Positions 10,602 to 20,028 of a stretch of 60,188 bases of DNA are shown here, one piece after another (position 1 is the stretch's first letter; each line of letters opens with the position of its first letter). The stretch is taken from contig JAEOTP010000077.1 in the NCBI GenBank assembly GCA_016839765.1, positions 1 to 60,188 on the forward strand, read 5' to 3'. Under the pieces are notes generated by a model. The model searched no databases and was not told where the DNA came from. It saw only the letters and a list, made by a program, of their open reading frames with translations. The position numbers were made by a program, and so were the translations under genes. This DNA comes from Promethearchaeota archaeon. GTDB lineage: Archaea; Asgardarchaeota; Lokiarchaeia; Sigyniarchaeales; SOKP01.

Positions 10602-11744
10602 TTGAAATGTCAATATTGTGAATATATTATTGTAAAACCCTATCCTAAGGATCAACTCTGCCCTAAATGTAGGAAATTTCTTCCTGAATTATATCAATAT
10701 GTAAATAATTCTGAAGCAGAAGTAAAGCCAGAACCCAAAGAGTTTGAGACTAAAACTTCAACTCTTAGTTCAAAATTTGAAGGAAAAATTAAAGTTAAAA
10801 CAAAAACAGATTCATTTTCGGTTTATGATGAGATAATTTATTTAAAAAATAAAGAGGAATATGTTAAATTTTTAGGTATTACCTCTGTAGAAAGAACTCC
10901 TTTATTTAATAATAATCATCGATATAATTATCTTTTAGAATTGACAAATAACTTAGATTACATTGCAACAAGTATTCTAGGTGGAGAATTAGATAAAATG
11001 CTTCTTACTACTGATAAAAAAATTGAAGAAAAATGTCAATTCTATGTTAAGGATAACATTATCTATATTGTATATGGAATCTTTCCTGATAAAAAAGGTA
11101 AATGGATACTAGAGCAAATGGCAAAAAATTATTCTGGATTAATTCGTGGTAAGGATGTAGATAATTTTACAAAACTTGATAAGTATGAAATTGATAATAA
11201 GTTTAAGGGCTTTCTTAACTCCATGTTAAATGAATATCTAAGTTTACAGGAAGTATTTACAGACCAAGAGATCCCTTATGTAGAAGATTGGATTCGAGTT
11301 GATTATTTAGGACTATCTTCAATGTCGATAGGCGTAATATCACTTCTTTTAGATGAACAAGGAAATCTAAATGTGGATGTACCTGGTGAATATGATAATC
11401 CTGCTGAAGAAATTGAAATGAAGGAATCTTTATTAACAGCTAAGATTGAAGCTATCGCAGCTAATACGTTAGGTAATACTGGCTCTTACCCTAGATGGAT
11501 AGCTGTGAAGTTAGGTTTTCAAAAATACCGATTTTTAACGTTTAAAAAGTATCAACACGACTATTTTCTCTCATTTTTATCTGAAGGAAATTTAAAGAAG
11601 ATTGAGTTAGTTGAGAAGAAAATTGAGCCCTATTTATATCATGGAATAGATACACCCTTTGCTGGTAATTTACGGCCTTTTAATAAATTAAAAGCTTCTG
11701 TAAAAGATGTAATTAATCACGTTCCCGGAAGAAAGTTTATATAA
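10602..11744 (+). CDS. Zn-ribbon protein with probable tandem longin-like domains
   Basis: N-terminal CQYC...CPKC; two beta-beta-helix segments (FYVKDNIIYIVYG...ILEQMAKNY; FKKYQHDYFLSFLSEG...) resembling longin folds. The fold call is inference. Confidence 0.5.
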   Translation: MKCQYCEYIIVKPYPKDQLCPKCRKFLPELYQYVNNSEAEVKPEPKEFETKTSTLSSKFEGKIKVKTKTDSFSVYDEIIYLKNKEEYVKFLGITSVERTPLFNNNHRYNYLLELTNNLDYIATSILGGELDKMLLTTDKKIEEKCQFYVKDNIIYIVYGIFPDKKGKWILEQMAKNYSGLIRGKDVDNFTKLDKYEIDNKFKGFLNSMLNEYLSLQEVFTDQEIPYVEDWIRVDYLGLSSMSIGVISLLLDEQGNLNVDVPGEYDNPAEEIEMKESLLTAKIEAIAANTLGNTGSYPRWIAVKLGFQKYRFLTFKKYQHDYFLSFLSEGNLKKIELVEKKIEPYLYHGIDTPFAGNLRPFNKLKASVKDVINHVPGRKFI

Positions 11745-12837: not shown

Positions 12838-14208
12838 TTATACTGACGTAAATTCAGTCTTTTTACCAACACCAAACAAACCTAGTGCAGTACCTAATTC
12901 TTTATGTTCTTTACCATAATCTCTTACAGAAATACCATTCATTACAGCATCAATCGCTTGTCTAAATGCTTTTGCCCCTGCAATAGGACCATCTGGGTGA
13001 GCGTGAATTGCACCACCACTACCAATCATAATATTTGTCCCTAAATCTTGAACACATTTTTCAACCAAACTAGGGGTAATGCCACCAGATGGCATTGGTA
13101 GGGTTCTTTTAATATGTGGAGCATTACGCATTGGCATAACCATTTGTCGAGCAGTTTCCTTGAACCTATCTGCCATTGTAGGTGCTTTACCATATGGTGC
13201 TGGATGTACTATTGTATCACACCCAGCTAATCTTCCAAATTTACCAAGGATTAAGGGACTTGAAATACCACTGAGAGGATCTTGGTAAAAAGCTCCTGCA
13301 AGATCCATGTGTCCTAAAATAGGGACCTTAACAGAAGGATCTTCGGCTAATTTCCTCATGGCAGAATATCCTGTTGAAATATGATTAACCATTAAAGCAT
13401 TTGCTCCATGTTCTTGTACGATGTCTGCTAACTCAAACATTCTTTCGACTCTGTCAGTTATGTTAACTGTATAGAGAGTTTTTTCACCTTTTTCGGAATC
13501 TGCTCTATCTAAAGCTTCCATAAAAGCAGTTACTCTTTCAGTGATAGGATTAAACGCGACATCTGCGATTAATTCATCATCTTTTATAATATCACAGCCA
13601 CCTACCGCCGCTTGGTAAGCAAGTTCAGCACCAATTTTTGGACCAGAATATACGCAAGGTTTAATCATGTTGTTTAGTAGTGGGCGTTCTTTAACTCCTA
13701 AAATCTTCCTAATTCCCACATCTCCAAATTTGGGTCCCTTAAATTCCTTTAAAAATGCTCTGGGAAATCGAACATCAACCATCTTTAATGGACCTCCCAT
13801 TGAAATATTTCCATATATGGTCGTAAAGAGCATAGGAAATTGGGGCTTAAAGTTTAAAGGAAATGCTATTTGTACAACATATTGATGCATTTTAGGGTTA
13901 CCAAAAAAATCTTCTACACCTTCATATTCAAAATCTGGAATTCTCCACCATCCAATTACTTTTGCTACATGTTTTCTTCGTTGTTCTGGAGTTTCAGCGG
14001 GAACAGGAACAAAAGTACCTGTTGATTGTTCAATGCAAACAGCTTGCATCATATAAAACGCATCCATTTTTCTATGAAGCATTGCACTATAAGTAGCAAC
14101 GATATGATTCTCGTAATCAATATCTTCTGGAAGAGCATTAGGTTTGGAAAGATTTTCTAAATCAAAATCATCAAATTCTGAGGGAATTTTTTCATCCAAA
14201 TTTATCAC
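12838..14208 (-). CDS. RuBisCO-like protein (form IV)
   Basis: EQSTGT, GNIS, IKP, GCDIIKDDE, PMPSGG, GGAIHAHPDG present; the KPK second Lys is replaced (KPC) and HRA becomes HMD. Confidence 0.85.
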   Translation of the reverse strand: MINLDEKIPSEFDDFDLENLSKPNALPEDIDYENHIVATYSAMLHRKMDAFYMMQAVCIEQSTGTFVPVPAETPEQRRKHVAKVIGWWRIPDFEYEGVEDFFGNPKMHQYVVQIAFPLNFKPQFPMLFTTIYGNISMGGPLKMVDVRFPRAFLKEFKGPKFGDVGIRKILGVKERPLLNNMIKPCVYSGPKIGAELAYQAAVGGCDIIKDDELIADVAFNPITERVTAFMEALDRADSEKGEKTLYTVNITDRVERMFELADIVQEHGANALMVNHISTGYSAMRKLAEDPSVKVPILGHMDLAGAFYQDPLSGISSPLILGKFGRLAGCDTIVHPAPYGKAPTMADRFKETARQMVMPMRNAPHIKRTLPMPSGGITPSLVEKCVQDLGTNIMIGSGGAIHAHPDGPIAGAKAFRQAIDAVMNGISVRDYGKEHKELGTALGLFGVGKKTEFTSV

Positions 14209-14361
14209 AATTTTAAATTTTTAATATAGTAAATGAAATAATCCATGGAAAAATAATATTTTTATGGAAAACCTAAATAAAAAACTGGAAAAAATTTATA
14301 GTTAATAAATTACGTATTTAGATTTTAAAAGTAGAAAGAAAAAAAAATAAATAAAATTAAG

Positions 14362-15465
14362 TTAATCTTTTGATTTTGCTGTAGATTTTAGGTCTAAGTA
14401 AGAATTCTCAAGTACACTTAAATATTCAATTAATACTTGGCTAGCTTTTGACTTTTTCTCATACTCTTCTTTGATAACATTTAGTAAATATTTAGGAAAG
14501 ATAAGATCAACATAGAAATCAGAAAGTAGGGCGTAATACTCATTGTTCCGTTCATCTTGAAACACTTGAATCATTTTGCTTTCCCAAAGCATCTTTAATA
14601 CCTCATCAACGTCATCTACACCTTTCTTTTTAAGCTTTTCAAGATCATTTCGAGTAACTATTGCGGTTCTTAATAAACGGAGAGTTTCATATACTTGAGG
14701 ATTAATTATAACATCAATTATAGTAAGATTGTCTTGTTCCGAAGGACGATAGTTTTGAAAAAATCTCTTAGATTCGGTACGATAATCTTCTGCTAATTGA
14801 GCTGGCAATCCTCTGTCAGCAGGATCCTTTAAAAGTTGTACAGGAGGTACTCTCATCATTATAATATCATTTGTAAGGAAAATAAGTTCTGAAGGCATCC
14901 CTTTTACAGATGCTTCTTTTATAATGTCACGTTTTATCAATTCAATTAAAACTCCTTCTAAATCAACGAAACCTTGTTTATACTTGTCTTTAAGCCAAAC
15001 CATGAGTTCTGATTTAGACACTACACCTTCTTCTCTTAAACGATTAATGATCATTCTCTTTATTTCATCTTGATAAGTAATTGCTAAGCGCTGCTCATCG
15101 TTTAATGTAGGATAAACAGATAACCTTTGAAATAGTGAAGGAATTAATCGAAGATAAGCATCCTCGTCAAGATTCTGTAAGATTATTCTGGAAACATCCA
15201 CTAACCCACTTTCATAAGCATCAGGATCATCATCTAGATTTAATAGAAGAAGGATATAATATCCCTTATCAGGACCGGTATAATACGAAGCGATATTAAG
15301 GGATCCTACCATTAGACTAATCATACCCGATTCTCCGCTATATTCATGTGTACTATATACTTGCATCAAAGTTTTATCTGAAATATTAATTTCTTCTGGA
15401 TATTTGGCTAAGATTTCTGTACCTACTCTTTCATCCCATTTCATAACAACTAAACCTACTGGCAT
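14362..15465 (-). CDS. Cytoplasmic protein with uDENN/longin-like N-terminus and probable winged-helix C-terminal part
   Basis: 367 aa; N-terminus GLVVMKWDERVGTEILAKYP resembles the uDENN/longin start motif of DENN/AVL9/NPRL2; ATG directly follows the upstream TAA, with GGAGGTG SD inside the upstream gene. The domain call is inference. Confidence 0.6.
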   Translation of the reverse strand: MPVGLVVMKWDERVGTEILAKYPEEINISDKTLMQVYSTHEYSGESGMISLMVGSLNIASYYTGPDKGYYILLLLNLDDDPDAYESGLVDVSRIILQNLDEDAYLRLIPSLFQRLSVYPTLNDEQRLAITYQDEIKRMIINRLREEGVVSKSELMVWLKDKYKQGFVDLEGVLIELIKRDIIKEASVKGMPSELIFLTNDIIMMRVPPVQLLKDPADRGLPAQLAEDYRTESKRFFQNYRPSEQDNLTIIDVIINPQVYETLRLLRTAIVTRNDLEKLKKKGVDDVDEVLKMLWESKMIQVFQDERNNEYYALLSDFYVDLIFPKYLLNVIKEEYEKKSKASQVLIEYLSVLENSYLDLKSTAKSKD

Positions 15466-18400
15466 TTATAATCCACCTCCTTCAAATTCACTTGGCTCAG
15501 GGAGTTGTTTACCCTTCTTTCTTTCAACACCTAAAATATCTCCTAATGATAATCCTAGCATTTCCCATTTATCTCCTACCTTTTTCACCACATATTCTTC
15601 TTTGGAGGGATATAAAAGAGATTCAGAAACAGTTTTCTTACTTTTTATATCACTTCTCATTTCTCTAGCTCTTTTTACAAAAGTTGGAATCCTTGCCTTC
15701 TGAATAGCGCGATATGCTACTAGGCTTCCTACAACAGCCACAACACCGATTACAATCATCAAGAAGTAAAACATGGGGAAACCAGGAAAGATTTCAGTCA
15801 TTTTTACATCAATAAATATGCTTCTAGTAGTATCACTATAGTTTGCTTTCTCAATGTGAAGGGTGGTTGTTAGTCTTTCATTAGCAAAAAATGCATCTGG
15901 TAATATCGCATCTGGAACAATCACAGTATATGATCCATCTCCATTATCAGTAAAATTATATCTAGTTCCACTTACCATTAAATAAACTGTTGCATTAGTT
16001 ATAGGTATAGTATCAATTGGATCAGTTAGGGAGATATCAAAACTTAAAGCATTACCAGATACTACTGACACTATATCTGTATATCCAATCTCGAAATCTC
16101 TTGGAATGATGTTAAGAAAGATGATAGCATCCCTTCTAACGTAATTAGTTTCGCTAAAAGTGACTATTAAGGTATAAGTTGCTATTTCTAAATTTTCTGT
16201 ATTAAAATCTAGTTCAAAGTACCCATTGCCCAAGTCATTCAACTCAACAATTCCATTGTCAACAACGACTCCACCAATTTCCTTCTCCCATGCACATTCC
16301 TTCACGTCAATATTTGACAAACCAGTTCCACTTTGTTCCACAGTATATTCAAAGTAAAATATCTGAGGTATACCAATAAAAACATCGTAAGTATCATATA
16401 AAGCTGCCGTTCCATTCAATCGAGTATTGATTTCAAAGATCTTTAATGGGAGTATAACCGATTTAGTCTCATAGTTCTGTTTGGATGCAGATATTTGAAT
16501 TAAATAATCACCATAAATAGGAAATTGTGAACTACTTAATTCCAATCTATATAAACCTCCTGTTCCATATGGAATAAGCGATCCTGTGACCCCACTTACT
16601 CCAAGACCATAATATTCAACATCAGCTCCATCTATATCCTGATCAGGGTCAGCATATATATCAGAATAGTGAACATCTAATGTAATGAGATCATTCCAAT
16701 AAACTTGAATTTGACTAGCATTAGGAGTTAGACTAGAAGGTCTGTCTAAAAGTGTGAAAGTTATCGAAGTAATATTAGTGATATAACCTGGCTTTGAAGC
16801 AATTATTTCCATTGTATAAGTCACTCCTGCTACCCAACTGGTACCCCCTGGTTCAATGGGATTAGAGGTATCAGCTAGTAGACTATATACACCATTTCCA
16901 GCCTCACTAAAAGATAAAGTAGCTGTATTAATCTTAGTAGTTCCTATCTTAATGTTATAATTCACTATACCATTAGTTATTGGATTACCGTATACTGGTA
17001 AGCCATTTTGAGTGTATGTATAATTTACCCAAACATTAAAAGTATCACCAACGATTGCAGCATCTGTTCCAGAAGAATCTAAATAAAGGAATGATTTAAA
17101 AGTATCTCCAGTAGTGACATTAACTATTGTTTCGAGATATTGATCAAATAACAGAGTGATTACTCCATCATTTGGAGTTGGATCTAAATCATCATCACAA
17201 ACTAAATTCATATACTGAGTACCATGCCATGTCACTGTTAAACTCATATTACCAATATTGGTGATATTATTCCAATGGAATATAAGATTTCCTAAAGAAT
17301 CAGTATATTCAGAGCCTAATAATGTTGGTCCAGATCCATCATCAACAGTAAATGTAATATTTGCTCCTACAACATATTCTTGGAATAAACCAGAATCAAC
17401 TCTGTGAAATGATAAATTTAAAGATGTCAATTCTGTATTTATAAATGCTAAATTATAAATCCCATAGGTATCTACTGTGGTTTCATTGAGTTCTATGGTT
17501 TGTGGGCTTGTTATGGTTAATTCTTGGCCATAACGTATATAAGATGCATTTACGATGTAAGTTCCATTTGCTAAACGATCAAAAACAGTTTTGCCAAACT
17601 CGTCAGTTTGTTGAGACCAAGAAATCGTTGGATTGGTAGCATTCCAAACTGTAATTGTTGTTTCAGGTACTAATCTATCATCAATATCCGTTACATTTAC
17701 CTCTAAAGTGTAGAAGAAACTATCTTGCTTATAGAGATAAACATTTAAAGGTTCTCTTAATGTGGAAAGCATATCATCAAAATGCTGAATCATACCAGCA
17801 TTATCTAAAGTTCCAGTTTCATTTACTCCATCAATTAATTCCCAGAAATAAAGATATAGCTTATAATCTTCACCACCTACATTATTATCTAAATCATTAA
17901 TAGATCCTGGAACAAATTCTACTACACCATCGTTATAAATAACATCTCCTCTTAAATAATTAATATCCATAGAAAAAATGTCTGATAATTCATACCCTTC
18001 GATAAAAATTCCTAGAGCATCTTTTGAGGGATCTGGACCGTTATGAATAATAGTATAGTTTTCAGCAACAAAGTTAGAAGTTCTTATGTCTTTTTGTAGA
18101 GTTCCATCATAGACATACAAAAATTCATTATGATCGTTTAATCCTGTAAGATCATAATAAGTATTAAGTGCAAACATTCTATCTAGTGTTGAATTGAACT
18201 CATTATCAAAGTATATACTACGATTAACGCTCCAAAGATTATAATCATAATAAAAGGTACAAGTATCCTCTACATGCATATCAAAAGCAGTTGTCCAATC
18301 AATCTTGTAACGAGAAAATACTTGACCATTTTGGCCATTTCCCAATGGACTAATAGTTTGAATGCTAGAAGGCATAGAACCAAATTTATAATCTTCAACC

Positions 18401-19755
18401 TCTTGATCAGTTAAAAATGTATTGTATACTGCAACTTCATCAATGATACCCTTAAAGTATTGATTAATATGCTCTGAAGCTCCTATAGTGAAAGGACTTC
18501 CTTCTGCTTGGTCTATATCTGTCGCTCCAGCCCAGGTAGTTGAATCTGGATACCACGTATCTTGAATAAAAACTTCAACGAGACCATTTCTATATCGTAC
18601 AGCGACAAAGTACCATCCACCTGTAGTGGTGATTTTACCAGCAGGTCCGAAATCAGCATATCTATCATCAGTTTCAGTATCAAGATAAACGTGAACATTA
18701 CCCTCGTTGTTAACACCTATTTCAAAATTATCATTATACGAATCACTTGCTTTCGCAAGGAATACATTTTCTGTTTGATGATTAGTTGCTCCACCAGAAA
18801 TCTGACTTGGATTTATCCAAGCACATGCCGTAAATTCATTACTTAAATCGTCAAATGGATCTCCAACATCTTGTAATCCACTAGCATAGCTTACAAAATC
18901 ATTTCCATCAAATTCCATACCATATTGTACTCTTCCGTTTACATATTGCGGATCTCCATTAAGTGAGCCCTCAGGTTCATTACCAGTTGAATCAGAAACA
19001 GAATTTTCAAAATGGGCTAAAAATTTTAGACTTGGATCACTTAATTGTTTTTCAGGTGATAATGATTTATTCAAATGAAAATTGTATCCTAACCTTTCAC
19101 ATTTCGTTACTGATAATCCTTGTTCAAGTTCTAATTCATAATCAGTACCAACCGTTACTGTGAGAGTACCACCTGCTAATAAACTAGAAAAACCAGTATT
19201 ATAATCTAGCTGATTAATACCCTCTGAATTTTCATTATAATATAGAAAATATGTTTTATTTGTTCCTGCTGGAACATCAGCAATAAAGGTTATCGTACAT
19301 GATTTTATGAAATTTGCATCATATTTTGTAATATTCCACATTTGCATTGGAATAGGATTGCTCCATTCATCATTACCCGTCACATTAAATGTTACTAATC
19401 TTTCAGTGTTTTCATAATGTTCATTTTCTCGAAAGGTGAAATATATATCAATTGGCTGATATCTATCAACATAATCCTCTTCTTCTAAGATAAAACCAAC
19501 ACGAAATCGGAAAGTTTTATTCCACCATAATGCTAAATCATATTTATCATTTTGATGAATAACATCAGAAGTTTTTGGAGAAAAAATGGTTCCACCAAAA
19601 TCATCACCCCTACTGACGTTATCATCTGTAGGTGAATCTATACTTTCTTTAACATTAGTTGTATCCGTTAAGAATGTAGCAATAAAAGCTGGTGTTAAAA
19701 GTATTAGTAAAAATATAAGAGAGTATATCGATTTTCGTTTTCTTTTTGTATTCAT
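15466..19755 (-). CDS. Large membrane-anchored cell-surface protein (DUF2341-like, LamG/ConA-like, Ig-like repeats, TM helix, cytoplasmic tail)
   Basis: 1429 aa; N-terminal basic+hydrophobic signal; LamG motifs FTACAWINP, WYFVAV, FKGIIDEVAVYN; repeated GNG.Y.L beta-sandwiches; many N-x-S/T sequons; TM FPMFYFLMIVIGVVAVVGSLVAY followed by an about 80-aa tail. Confidence 0.85.
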   Translation of the reverse strand: MNTKRKRKSIYSLIFLLILLTPAFIATFLTDTTNVKESIDSPTDDNVSRGDDFGGTIFSPKTSDVIHQNDKYDLALWWNKTFRFRVGFILEEEDYVDRYQPIDIYFTFRENEHYENTERLVTFNVTGNDEWSNPIPMQMWNITKYDANFIKSCTITFIADVPAGTNKTYFLYYNENSEGINQLDYNTGFSSLLAGGTLTVTVGTDYELELEQGLSVTKCERLGYNFHLNKSLSPEKQLSDPSLKFLAHFENSVSDSTGNEPEGSLNGDPQYVNGRVQYGMEFDGNDFVSYASGLQDVGDPFDDLSNEFTACAWINPSQISGGATNHQTENVFLAKASDSYNDNFEIGVNNEGNVHVYLDTETDDRYADFGPAGKITTTGGWYFVAVRYRNGLVEVFIQDTWYPDSTTWAGATDIDQAEGSPFTIGASEHINQYFKGIIDEVAVYNTFLTDQEVEDYKFGSMPSSIQTISPLGNGQNGQVFSRYKIDWTTAFDMHVEDTCTFYYDYNLWSVNRSIYFDNEFNSTLDRMFALNTYYDLTGLNDHNEFLYVYDGTLQKDIRTSNFVAENYTIIHNGPDPSKDALGIFIEGYELSDIFSMDINYLRGDVIYNDGVVEFVPGSINDLDNNVGGEDYKLYLYFWELIDGVNETGTLDNAGMIQHFDDMLSTLREPLNVYLYKQDSFFYTLEVNVTDIDDRLVPETTITVWNATNPTISWSQQTDEFGKTVFDRLANGTYIVNASYIRYGQELTITSPQTIELNETTVDTYGIYNLAFINTELTSLNLSFHRVDSGLFQEYVVGANITFTVDDGSGPTLLGSEYTDSLGNLIFHWNNITNIGNMSLTVTWHGTQYMNLVCDDDLDPTPNDGVITLLFDQYLETIVNVTTGDTFKSFLYLDSSGTDAAIVGDTFNVWVNYTYTQNGLPVYGNPITNGIVNYNIKIGTTKINTATLSFSEAGNGVYSLLADTSNPIEPGGTSWVAGVTYTMEIIASKPGYITNITSITFTLLDRPSSLTPNASQIQVYWNDLITLDVHYSDIYADPDQDIDGADVEYYGLGVSGVTGSLIPYGTGGLYRLELSSSQFPIYGDYLIQISASKQNYETKSVILPLKIFEINTRLNGTAALYDTYDVFIGIPQIFYFEYTVEQSGTGLSNIDVKECAWEKEIGGVVVDNGIVELNDLGNGYFELDFNTENLEIATYTLIVTFSETNYVRRDAIIFLNIIPRDFEIGYTDIVSVVSGNALSFDISLTDPIDTIPITNATVYLMVSGTRYNFTDNGDGSYTVIVPDAILPDAFFANERLTTTLHIEKANYSDTTRSIFIDVKMTEIFPGFPMFYFLMIVIGVVAVVGSLVAYRAIQKARIPTFVKRAREMRSDIKSKKTVSESLLYPSKEEYVVKKVGDKWEMLGLSLGDILGVERKKGKQLPEPSEFEGGGL

Positions 19756-20028
19756 GTGTTCATTACCATTTTTTTCAAAATTATTTCTAATTATTCTTAT
19801 AATTTAGATTTTTTAACTTTATTAATACCACTTTTCATATTTAACTTTTTATCATACAAAAGATATATATATAAAATTTGTACGAAAAAGAAGCGTCTTA
19901 CATCAAACAAAAACTAAAGAAATTAATATTTAGAGAGTACAAATTAAATGTAATTTGTAAAATATGATTTTTTGAAATGAAGCCCTTTTAATCATTTTTG
20001 ATTACAAAATGATAATTTGTATGTAATT

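Follow-up and report, generated by a model that had tools for sequence, protein, structure and literature searches.

How might a protein on the surface of an Asgard archaeal cell be wired to the small-GTPase machinery inside it? Asgard genomes encode hundreds of longin, roadblock and small-GTPase genes without assigned function, and gene order in the cultured strain is uninformative on their partners (PMC10933270). The question is raised by two adjoining genes in a 60,188-nucleotide (nt) stretch of a Promethearchaeota archaeon genome (assembly GCA_016839765.1, contig JAEOTP010000077.1; hereafter the window), one for a giant surface protein of 1429 amino acids (aa), P0001, and one for a soluble protein of 367 aa, P0002, here called the adaptor. 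A preliminary description of this DNA had read the pair as a receptor-adaptor system linking extracellular adhesion or glycan sensing to small-GTPase regulation, which our results support in part, the sensing being conjectural. Our analysis favors a lasting complex of surface protein and adaptor in which the longin domain of the adaptor would act as a platform for a small GTPase, and we put the probability of this reading at roughly 60%.

Pairing of the Surface Protein and the Adaptor

Both open reading frames (ORFs) are present, on the minus strand, and meet at a junction that reads GAAGGAGGTGGATTA-TAA-ATG, with a Shine-Dalgarno (SD)-like sequence just upstream. The preliminary description had pointed to this junction, and it proved to be general: in 76 of 76 orthologous loci, drawn from species-representative genomes, a large same-strand gene for a transmembrane (TM) protein abuts or overlaps the adaptor start, at a distance of -1 to +3 nt. 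An SD-like pentamer lies 11-16 nt 5' of the adaptor start in 75 of these 76 loci and is encoded by conserved terminal Gly-Gly codons; the tail of P0001 terminates in G-G-G-L, and its codons contain the SD sequence. Programmed read-through of the TAA codon was considered and rejected, the two genes being in frame in 17/76 loci and otherwise overlapping by 1 nt or lying 1-3 nt apart, and termination-reinitiation fits the sequences better as the route of adaptor translation. When complete, the orthologous surface proteins are usually 1220-2284 aa long; they have one TM helix, some 83 aa short of the C-terminus, and their tails are strongly conserved. Since general synteny is conserved too among these close orthologues, adjacency in them is weak evidence when taken alone, and the argument for pairing rests on paralogues, changes of gene order and fusions.

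The same genome carries a paralogous array on contig C96 (locus L009, 1304-15529, minus strand) with genes of 956, 948, 374, 1353 and 375 aa. Its three large proteins (956, 948 and 1353 aa) have the topology of P0001 and a related juxtamembrane motif, no Pfam domain being found in any of them, and its two adaptors (374 and 375 aa) are 28-32% identical to P0002. Further afield, a giant single-pass protein directly adjoins the adaptor, in either gene order, in 13 of 35 distant loci that come from some 20 further families of the phylum. A search of representative proteins also returned natural fusions of 1330-2548 aa that have the adaptor as their C-terminal part and are laid out as ectodomain, TM helix, homologous tail, a linker of 20-30 aa and adaptor. 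At the DNA level, at least seven genomes have unbroken fusion frames, 1957-2670 aa in length, and several of them also have a split copy. The arrangement seen in P0001 and P0002 is far beyond chance, and the conservation of pair and tail across Asgard genomes, proposed earlier as a check, is borne out by orthologues, distant families and fusions alike.

The Surface Protein and Its Cytoplasmic Tail

P0001 is the LamG protein with a single C-terminal TM helix that had been described, as confirmed by the ORF, the Pfam search and a TM scan. The Laminin_G_3 match (PF13385; E 1e-17, 65.1 bits against a gathering cut-off of 27.6) predicts a lectin fold, and the same region matches an arabinanase (PDB 5hon, E 1e-5) and, weakly, the NCBIfam model TafC. 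The Ig-like stalk of the preliminary description is weakly supported, by a CarboxypepD_reg match below threshold (PF13620; E 2.6e-5, 24.9 bits against a cut-off of 32.3) and by a weak CarboxypepD_reg lead from the ESM Atlas with a score of 0.77. The ectodomain contains 27 N-x-S/T sequons, or 2.1 per 100 aa where 1.3 would be expected, and the protein is probably glycosylated.

The tail, put earlier at about 80 aa, comprises 83 aa after the TM helix and starts AYRAIQKARIPTFVKRAREM. Directly after this helix, all partner proteins, from about nine families, have the motif [RK]-[IVYF]-P-x-x-[IV]-[KR]-[KQ]-x-[DRN], which reads RIPTFVKRAR in P0001 and RIPFVIKKID, RIPYEIKQIN or KYPPLVRKIR in others, and a second element, G-x-x-W-x-x-LGL, is common to closer relatives. 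Compared with the window, adaptors are a median 84% identical, tails (first 62 residues) 66% and ectodomains 24%. Electrostatically, the tail and the longin domain of the adaptor complement each other, with +7 over the first 40 aa of the former and -10 on the latter.

Modeling of tail and adaptor together had been proposed, and we modeled them as a single chain, tail-TAA(Q)-adaptor, which is possible because TAA and ATG are in frame here. For the alignment, 17 loci that are likewise in frame were combined with eight natural fusions and 45 adaptors. The AlphaFold model has a mean predicted local distance difference test score (pLDDT) of 88.6 and a predicted template modeling score (pTM) of 0.84, and in it the tail appears ordered with high confidence: residues 11-60 have a pLDDT of 91-95 and form helices at 12-25, which carries the RIP motif (pLDDT 94-95), and at 39-52 and 58-62 (pLDDT 91-92). 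Confidence drops to 33 in the linker of tail residues 67-80. As the pLDDT is high across the non-helical parts of the tail too and the pTM is nearly unchanged from that of the adaptor, the model suggests a tail packed against the adaptor and joined to it by a flexible linker.

Fold of the Adaptor

P0002 has 819 homologues in a large protein collection; of the best 120, nearly all have the same length of 367 aa, and identities run from 79 to 97%. It has no match in Pfam, NCBIfam or a PDB sequence search, and the ESM Atlas returns only unnamed Asgard clusters. The AlphaFold model, built on a 58-sequence alignment (pLDDT 93.5, pTM 0.87), shows in order a longin domain (2-97), a helical linker, a winged helix (134-206), a second winged helix (243-322) and a long C-terminal helix. 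DSSP assigns to the first of these the succession of elements of a longin fold (E2-11, E15-22, H30-43, E47-53, E56-62, E69-75, H81-97). VIA-align superposes it at Z 10-11.7, with a root-mean-square deviation (rmsd) of about 3 Å over 107-119 residues, on VAMP7, NPRL2, FNIP2, DENND1A/B, Ykt6, Lst4, Sec22b and a Lokiarchaeal longin. All of these partners are tied, so the longin fold is certain and a specific affinity to NPRL2 is not. The second winged helix has a profile match to the winged helix-turn-helix (wHTH) protein PH1932 (E 2e-4) in a PDB profile search that gave winged-helix matches only, and several members of the adaptor family have helix-turn-helix (HTH) matches in Pfam.

With the full-length model as query, Foldseek ranks the NPRL2/NPRL3 chains of GATOR1 first (9o5d_D, E 1.2e-4; 9v0j; 7t3b), with E values of 1e-4 to 1e-3 and probabilities of up to 1.00, followed by Mon1-Ccz1, the SEA complex, Fuzzy-Inturned and many isolated longins. 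The winged-helical C-terminal part and the NPRL2/NPRL3-like layout that had been surmised from sequence are therefore what the model predicts. The supposed uDENN/longin-like start holds in its longin half, whereas a DENN core was not found: the central and downstream DENN modules are not present, the chain past residue 120 consists of the helical linker and the two winged helices, and the DENND1A/B structures align to residues 1-120 only, such that "uDENN" here amounts to "longin".

Comparison with Known Longin Proteins

NPRL2 and NPRL3 (Npr2 and Npr3 in yeast) are the longin subunits of GATOR1/SEACIT, the GTPase-activating protein (GAP) for RagA/Gtr1, with Arg78 of NPRL2 as the arginine finger. 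According to its model, P0002 shares with them the architecture of longin plus winged helices, as well as the approximate size (about 370-400 aa), and its longin domain superposes on theirs at Z ~11.5 with an rmsd of 2.8-3.0 Å over 119 residues. In NPRL2/NPRL3 the N-terminal longin is likewise followed by repeated winged HTH domains (PMC3747258). The P0002 family differs in that neither Pfam membership nor a conserved arginine finger was found for it and that no DEPDC5-like partner is known; P0002 has a surface-protein tail as partner, and the GTPase encoded beside the adaptor in other lineages is of the Arf type rather than the Rag type. The architecture agrees, but neither membership by sequence nor a candidate catalytic arginine was found, and we therefore do not class P0002 as an NPRL2/3 orthologue.

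C9orf72-SMCR8 acts on Arf GTPases, and the GTPase neighbor of the adaptor in other lineages is Arf-like as well. In C9orf72-SMCR8 and FLCN-FNIP, however, a DENN module follows the longin domain where P0002 has winged helices. The longin of C9orf72 has an essential W33-D34...G38-P39, and GAP-type longins (NPRL2, FLCN, SMCR8, C9orf72) have G-P before the second strand (PMC12290439). The first longin hairpin of the adaptor, W10-D11-x3-G15, has the same spacing and is well conserved (W10 in 53/58, D11 in 46/58 and G15 in 54/58 members), its glycine standing at the place of the G-P of the GAP longins. Residue 13 in this hairpin is R in 30/58 members and K in 8/58, and the beta4-beta5 loop, S60-Y-Y-T-G64-x-E, has no conserved basic residue.

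Asgard longins of this kind have been noticed before. An "NPRL2-like longin domain" category exists among the Asgard clusters of orthologous genes (asCOGs; Liu et al., 2021, bioRxiv 10.1101/2020.10.19.343400; used in PMC9834061). In the portion of that work available to us its members, some with an NPRL2-type C-terminal part, are expanded in Lokiarchaeia, and the P0002 family very probably belongs to this set. The fusions described in the same portion are with two-component domains, and giant surface proteins, a tail motif or an adjacent Arf-like GTPase do not appear there. Asgard small GTPases to which a longin or roadblock domain is fused have been published too (Tran et al., 2024, PMC10933270). 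A non-exhaustive literature search turned up no account of adaptors coupled or fused to giant surface proteins, of the tail motif that the latter share or of an Arf-like GTPase as recurrent neighbor. The remark in the preliminary description that the pair was undescribed thus holds for the literature searched, with the qualification that NPRL2-like Asgard longins and longin-GTPase fusions themselves are already published.

GTPase Neighbors of the Adaptor

In 15 of the 35 distant loci, an N-terminally extended Arf-like GTPase is encoded at most two genes from the adaptor, often 8-30 nt away or overlapping it, and six loci (L094, L096, L102, L103, L109 and L122) contain all three genes, for surface protein, adaptor and GTPase. 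At 275-320 aa, or more in some cases, the extended GTPase has about 125 aa in front of a G domain of the Arf family (best profile match Arf1, E 4e-26; Pfam Arf, E 2e-12 to 1.7e-23). The G1 GxGGVGKT, DxxGQ and NKxD motifs are intact, the last reading NKQD, and G..VGK, GQ and N(K)QD are invariant in the alignment. It is similar to the GTPases of Tran et al. in combining an N-terminal extension with an Arf/Rag-like G domain with intact motifs. The GTPase link of the adaptor, which the preliminary description had proposed, is accordingly supported by gene order in other Asgard lineages, whereas the window itself has no GTPase gene next to the pair. In strain MK-D1, GTPase genes generally lie outside operons with longin genes and pairs are hard to assign (PMC10933270); the adjacency of adaptor and GTPase in other Asgard families supplies such a pairing, while the genome of the window behaves like MK-D1.

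The window does encode a Rag/Gtr1-like GTPase, 2.6 kb upstream of the pair and outside its operon, with three genes between, two of them on the other strand. It is 67-81% identical and syntenic in the 16 loci with enough flank. A tblastn search found no relative of it near paralogous or distant modules, and we rejected it as the presumptive client; it stays a mere candidate.

Two further kinds of adaptor homologue were observed. Stand-alone proteins of 125-150 aa that are homologous to the adaptor longin only (L102 4945-5325, L103 5830-6219, L104 4299-4688 and, in the genome of the window, C93:12936-13304) lie, in one Asgard family, next to 525-573-aa versions of the Arf-like GTPase and near full pairs of adaptor and surface protein, and are candidates for a second longin partner. 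Longer homologues, of 580-604 aa, have an extra C-terminal part of about 160-200 aa (L093 7843-9585, minus strand; G128:C10; G126:C128; G123:C4), and the one in L093 directly follows an Arf-like GTPase gene and has no giant neighbor.

A Proposed GTPase Platform and the Alternatives to It

On the reading that we favor, the giant, fast-diversifying LamG surface protein would cross the membrane once and expose a conserved basic tail to the cytosol, where the acidic adaptor would bind it via the juxtamembrane motif. Termination-reinitiation would co-translate both genes, such that one adaptor would be made per tail. The longin domain of the adaptor may then serve as platform for a small GTPase, the likeliest client being the N-terminally extended (reportedly longin-fused) Arf-like GTPase, and the surface protein would mark the place on the membrane to which the switch is recruited or at which it is regulated. 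The data establish the anatomy, the fold, the coupling, the fusions, the tail motif, the conservation gradient and the GTPase neighborhood, whereas binding of the tail by the adaptor, binding of the adaptor to a GTPase, any enzymatic effect on the latter and the direction and purpose of a transmembrane signal are matters that we infer. By analogy, a variable ectodomain with a short conserved tail that holds a conserved cytosolic adaptor may be likened to the logic of integrin and talin, and a longin/roadblock platform that recruits a GTPase at the membrane to that of Rag and Ragulator; the likeness is one of analogy only, as neither the tail nor the receptor P0001 has homology to those proteins.

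Several observations weigh against this reading. With respect to the adaptor, none of the 58 family members matches the Pfam models for NPR2/NPR3, longin or DENN at E <= 1, the global TM-score between P0002 and NPRL2 is about 0.26 with the domains placed differently, residue 16 after G15 is P in 7/58 members and otherwise A, T or V, and no nearly invariant Arg that could act as an arginine finger was found in longin residues 1-100 of the 58 aligned members. The packing of the tail on the adaptor is read from the confidence values of the model alone. With respect to the GTPase, no such gene adjoins the pair in the window or the paralogues in the same genome, in which the two homologues of the extended GTPase are encoded on other contigs (C61:23142-24002 and C23:24911-25594), away from adaptors. 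The Rag-like GTPase is near the pair by general synteny, as unrelated neighbors are, and comparison of the N-terminal extension of the Arf-like GTPase with the adaptor longin by hhalign gave no significant match (E 0.07, probability 0.8%). Some distant adaptor genes, finally, have neither a surface-protein nor a GTPase partner nearby.

A possible, if clearly less probable, alternative is a structural adaptor without GTPase function, which would link the surface protein to the cytoskeleton, to ESCRT-type machinery (by way of its tandem winged helices, which resemble those of ESCRT-II) or to further copies of itself and thereby cluster or position it, e.g., on protrusions. The pairing, the fusions and the tail evidence fit this role equally well, and the modules of the genome under study have no adjoining GTPase. 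ESCRT-II (Vps22/25/36), too, is built of tandem winged helices, in its case without a longin domain, and is matched by P0002 in Foldseek (2zme_A, E 6.7e-3). A 667-aa protein with a TrmB-type wHTH and an apolipoprotein-like coiled coil is encoded 24 nt downstream of the C96 array, and Lokiarchaeal cells are described, in the available part of one account, as lacking a surface layer (S-layer) and as displaying complex surface proteins on protrusions with a presumed role in syntrophic contacts (PMC9834061). What speaks for the GTPase platform instead is that the Arf-like GTPase recurs beside the adaptor across many families, that the WD...G hairpin is common to longins that regulate GTPases, and that longin domains are typically GTPase platforms (PMC3747258).

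The two wHTH-like domains raise the question of DNA binding. Weak matches to ArsR-, MarR- and TrmB-type regulators, and the TrmB-domain protein that adjoins one paralogous module, would be in line with a membrane-tethered transcription regulator that the tail sequesters or, when fused, anchors in the manner of ToxR or CadC, so that an outside cue alters expression. The charges point the other way. The net charge of P0002 is -15 (family median -11), and instead of being basic, its winged helices range from neutral to acidic (first, +1, family median 0; second, -6, family median -2), which, as judged from sequence, argues against DNA binding. In addition, the layout resembles the protein-binding NPRL2/3 rather than DNA binders, and the adjacent genes encode GTPases and are not target promoters, which leaves such a regulator very unlikely. 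Least credible of all is a biogenesis factor (a targeting, insertion or quality-control chaperone) needed only during synthesis of the giant protein, like the SRX longin of the signal recognition particle (SRP) receptor: the tight translational coupling, the combination of longin and Arf-like GTPase at the membrane in SRP receptor alpha/beta (PMC3747258) and an SRP-SR chain among the Foldseek and VIA-align matches (7obq_y, Z 9.7) would suit it, but permanent fusions in several genomes indicate a lasting complex and not a transient helper, the tail motif lies C-terminal to the TM helix and would emerge once the ectodomain has already been handled, and the adaptor is more conserved than any neighboring gene.

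Returning to the GTPase platform, the module offers a concrete wiring, in which the tail motif of abundant surface proteins would hold an NPRL2/3-like adaptor that, in other lineages, goes together with a single Arf-like GTPase, and a link of surface proteins to eukaryote-type switch machinery bears on models of eukaryogenesis. It is tempting to extend it to a three-part module, composed of a variable receptor, an NPRL2/C9orf72-like adaptor and a longin-fused Arf-like GTPase, in which surface events control the GTPase switch; we think this full version unlikely. If it were true, contact of the surface with a partner cell or polymer would drive an intracellular small-GTPase switch, and the module would stand, among prokaryotes, as a forerunner of the receptor-to-GTPase and lysosomal longin-GAP signaling of eukaryotes and as the first assignable regulator-GTPase pair in Asgard archaea.

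Distribution of the Adaptor Family

At E <= 1e-5, the adaptor family is found in 310 of the 400 genomes of the phylum that were sampled. It occurs in every genome of the family, order and class of the window, mostly as several copies, and extends to many further families. Together with the rank of the adaptor as the most conserved gene of its neighborhood, where the Rag-like GTPase stands at 78%, this distribution suggests that the adaptor probably matters to the cell. With P0002 as query the family was not found in families f13-f16, f18 and f28, except for three isolated matches. Two of the three (in genomes G039 and G073) have a suspiciously high identity of 65-81%, resembling misbinning or mislabeling. 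Likewise, an 85%-identical adaptor with its surface partner (L025, DATKTW010000037.1) is deposited as bacterial, Candidatus Nanopelagicaceae, and the class labels of other metagenome-assembled genomes (Hod-, Odin-, Thor- and Hermodarchaeota) clash with their near-identity; misbinning or mislabeling is the likely cause in these cases.

Features of the Locus

The features of the pair and its surroundings are collected in Table 1. The AT-rich spacer before P0001, a putative promoter region, and the T-rich tract after P0002, likely an archaeal terminator, would fit a two-gene transcription unit. The window has a GC content of about 30%, and no DNA repeats of note were seen in the P0001-P0002 region.

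Table 1. Positions of features in the window
Feature	Position	Strand	Basis or remark
T-rich tract straight after P0002 stop; likely terminator	14331..14357	-	sequence read
P0002 gene, 367-aa soluble acidic adaptor	14362..15465	-	ORF; AlphaFold
Second winged helix, residues 243-322	14500..14739	-	DSSP; PDB profile match
First winged helix, residues 134-206	14848..15066	-	DSSP topology; weak Mnd1 and eWH matches
Longin domain, residues 1-100, beta-beta-alpha-beta-beta-beta-alpha	15166..15465	-	DSSP of model; VIA-align
P0002 ATG	15463-15465	-	
P0001 TAA stop	15466-15468	-	
P0001 gene, 1429-aa single-pass (N-out, C-in) surface protein	15466..19755	-	ORF and TM scan
Basic-then-acidic flexible tail end	15469..15528	-	length varies among orthologues
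Shine-Dalgarno-like GGAGGTG	15474..15480	-	within P0001 gene, 8 nt 5' of P0002 ATG
Second conserved tail element LLYPSKEEY..G.KWE.LGLSL..ILG, residues 1380-1409	15529..15618	-	orthologue comparison
Juxtamembrane motif R-I-P-T-F-V-K-R-A-R-E-M, residues 1355-1371	15643..15693	-	common to every partner surface protein
Sole C-terminal TM helix, residues 1328-1346	15718..15774	-	hydropathy 2.64
CarboxypepD_reg-like beta-sandwich repeat, residues 683-746	17518..17709	-	Pfam PF13620; sole recognizable stalk part
LamG / concanavalin-A-like domain, residues 303-453	18397..18849	-	Pfam PF13385
Basic region and hydrophobic segment, residues 1-30, predicted signal peptide or signal anchor	19666..19755	-	hydropathy peak residues 10-28
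AT-rich 273-nt intergenic stretch with TATA-like tracts; putative promoter region	19756..20028	-	sequence read
Rag/Gtr1-like GTPase, 311 aa, C-terminal extension of about 100 aa	22408..23343	-	Pfam PF04670, E 1e-23

The neighboring genes encode a RuBisCO-like protein, an S-adenosylmethionine (SAM) methyltransferase, a PfkB kinase, the Gtr1/RagA-like GTPase, ThiI and a leucine-rich repeat (LRR)/HEAT protein. Two of the surrounding genes accompany the pair elsewhere. A 380-aa protein (10602-11744, plus strand), labeled a Zn-ribbon plus double longin in the preliminary description, has no Pfam or NCBIfam match and is syntenic with the module in 55/76 orthologous loci, with a median identity of 63%. 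The RuBisCO large-subunit-like gene (12838-14208, minus strand) lies just downstream of the module on the same strand and is kept there in 65/76 loci; its identities form two classes, one near 54% and one near 90%, suggesting that the gene exists in two forms or has been replaced.

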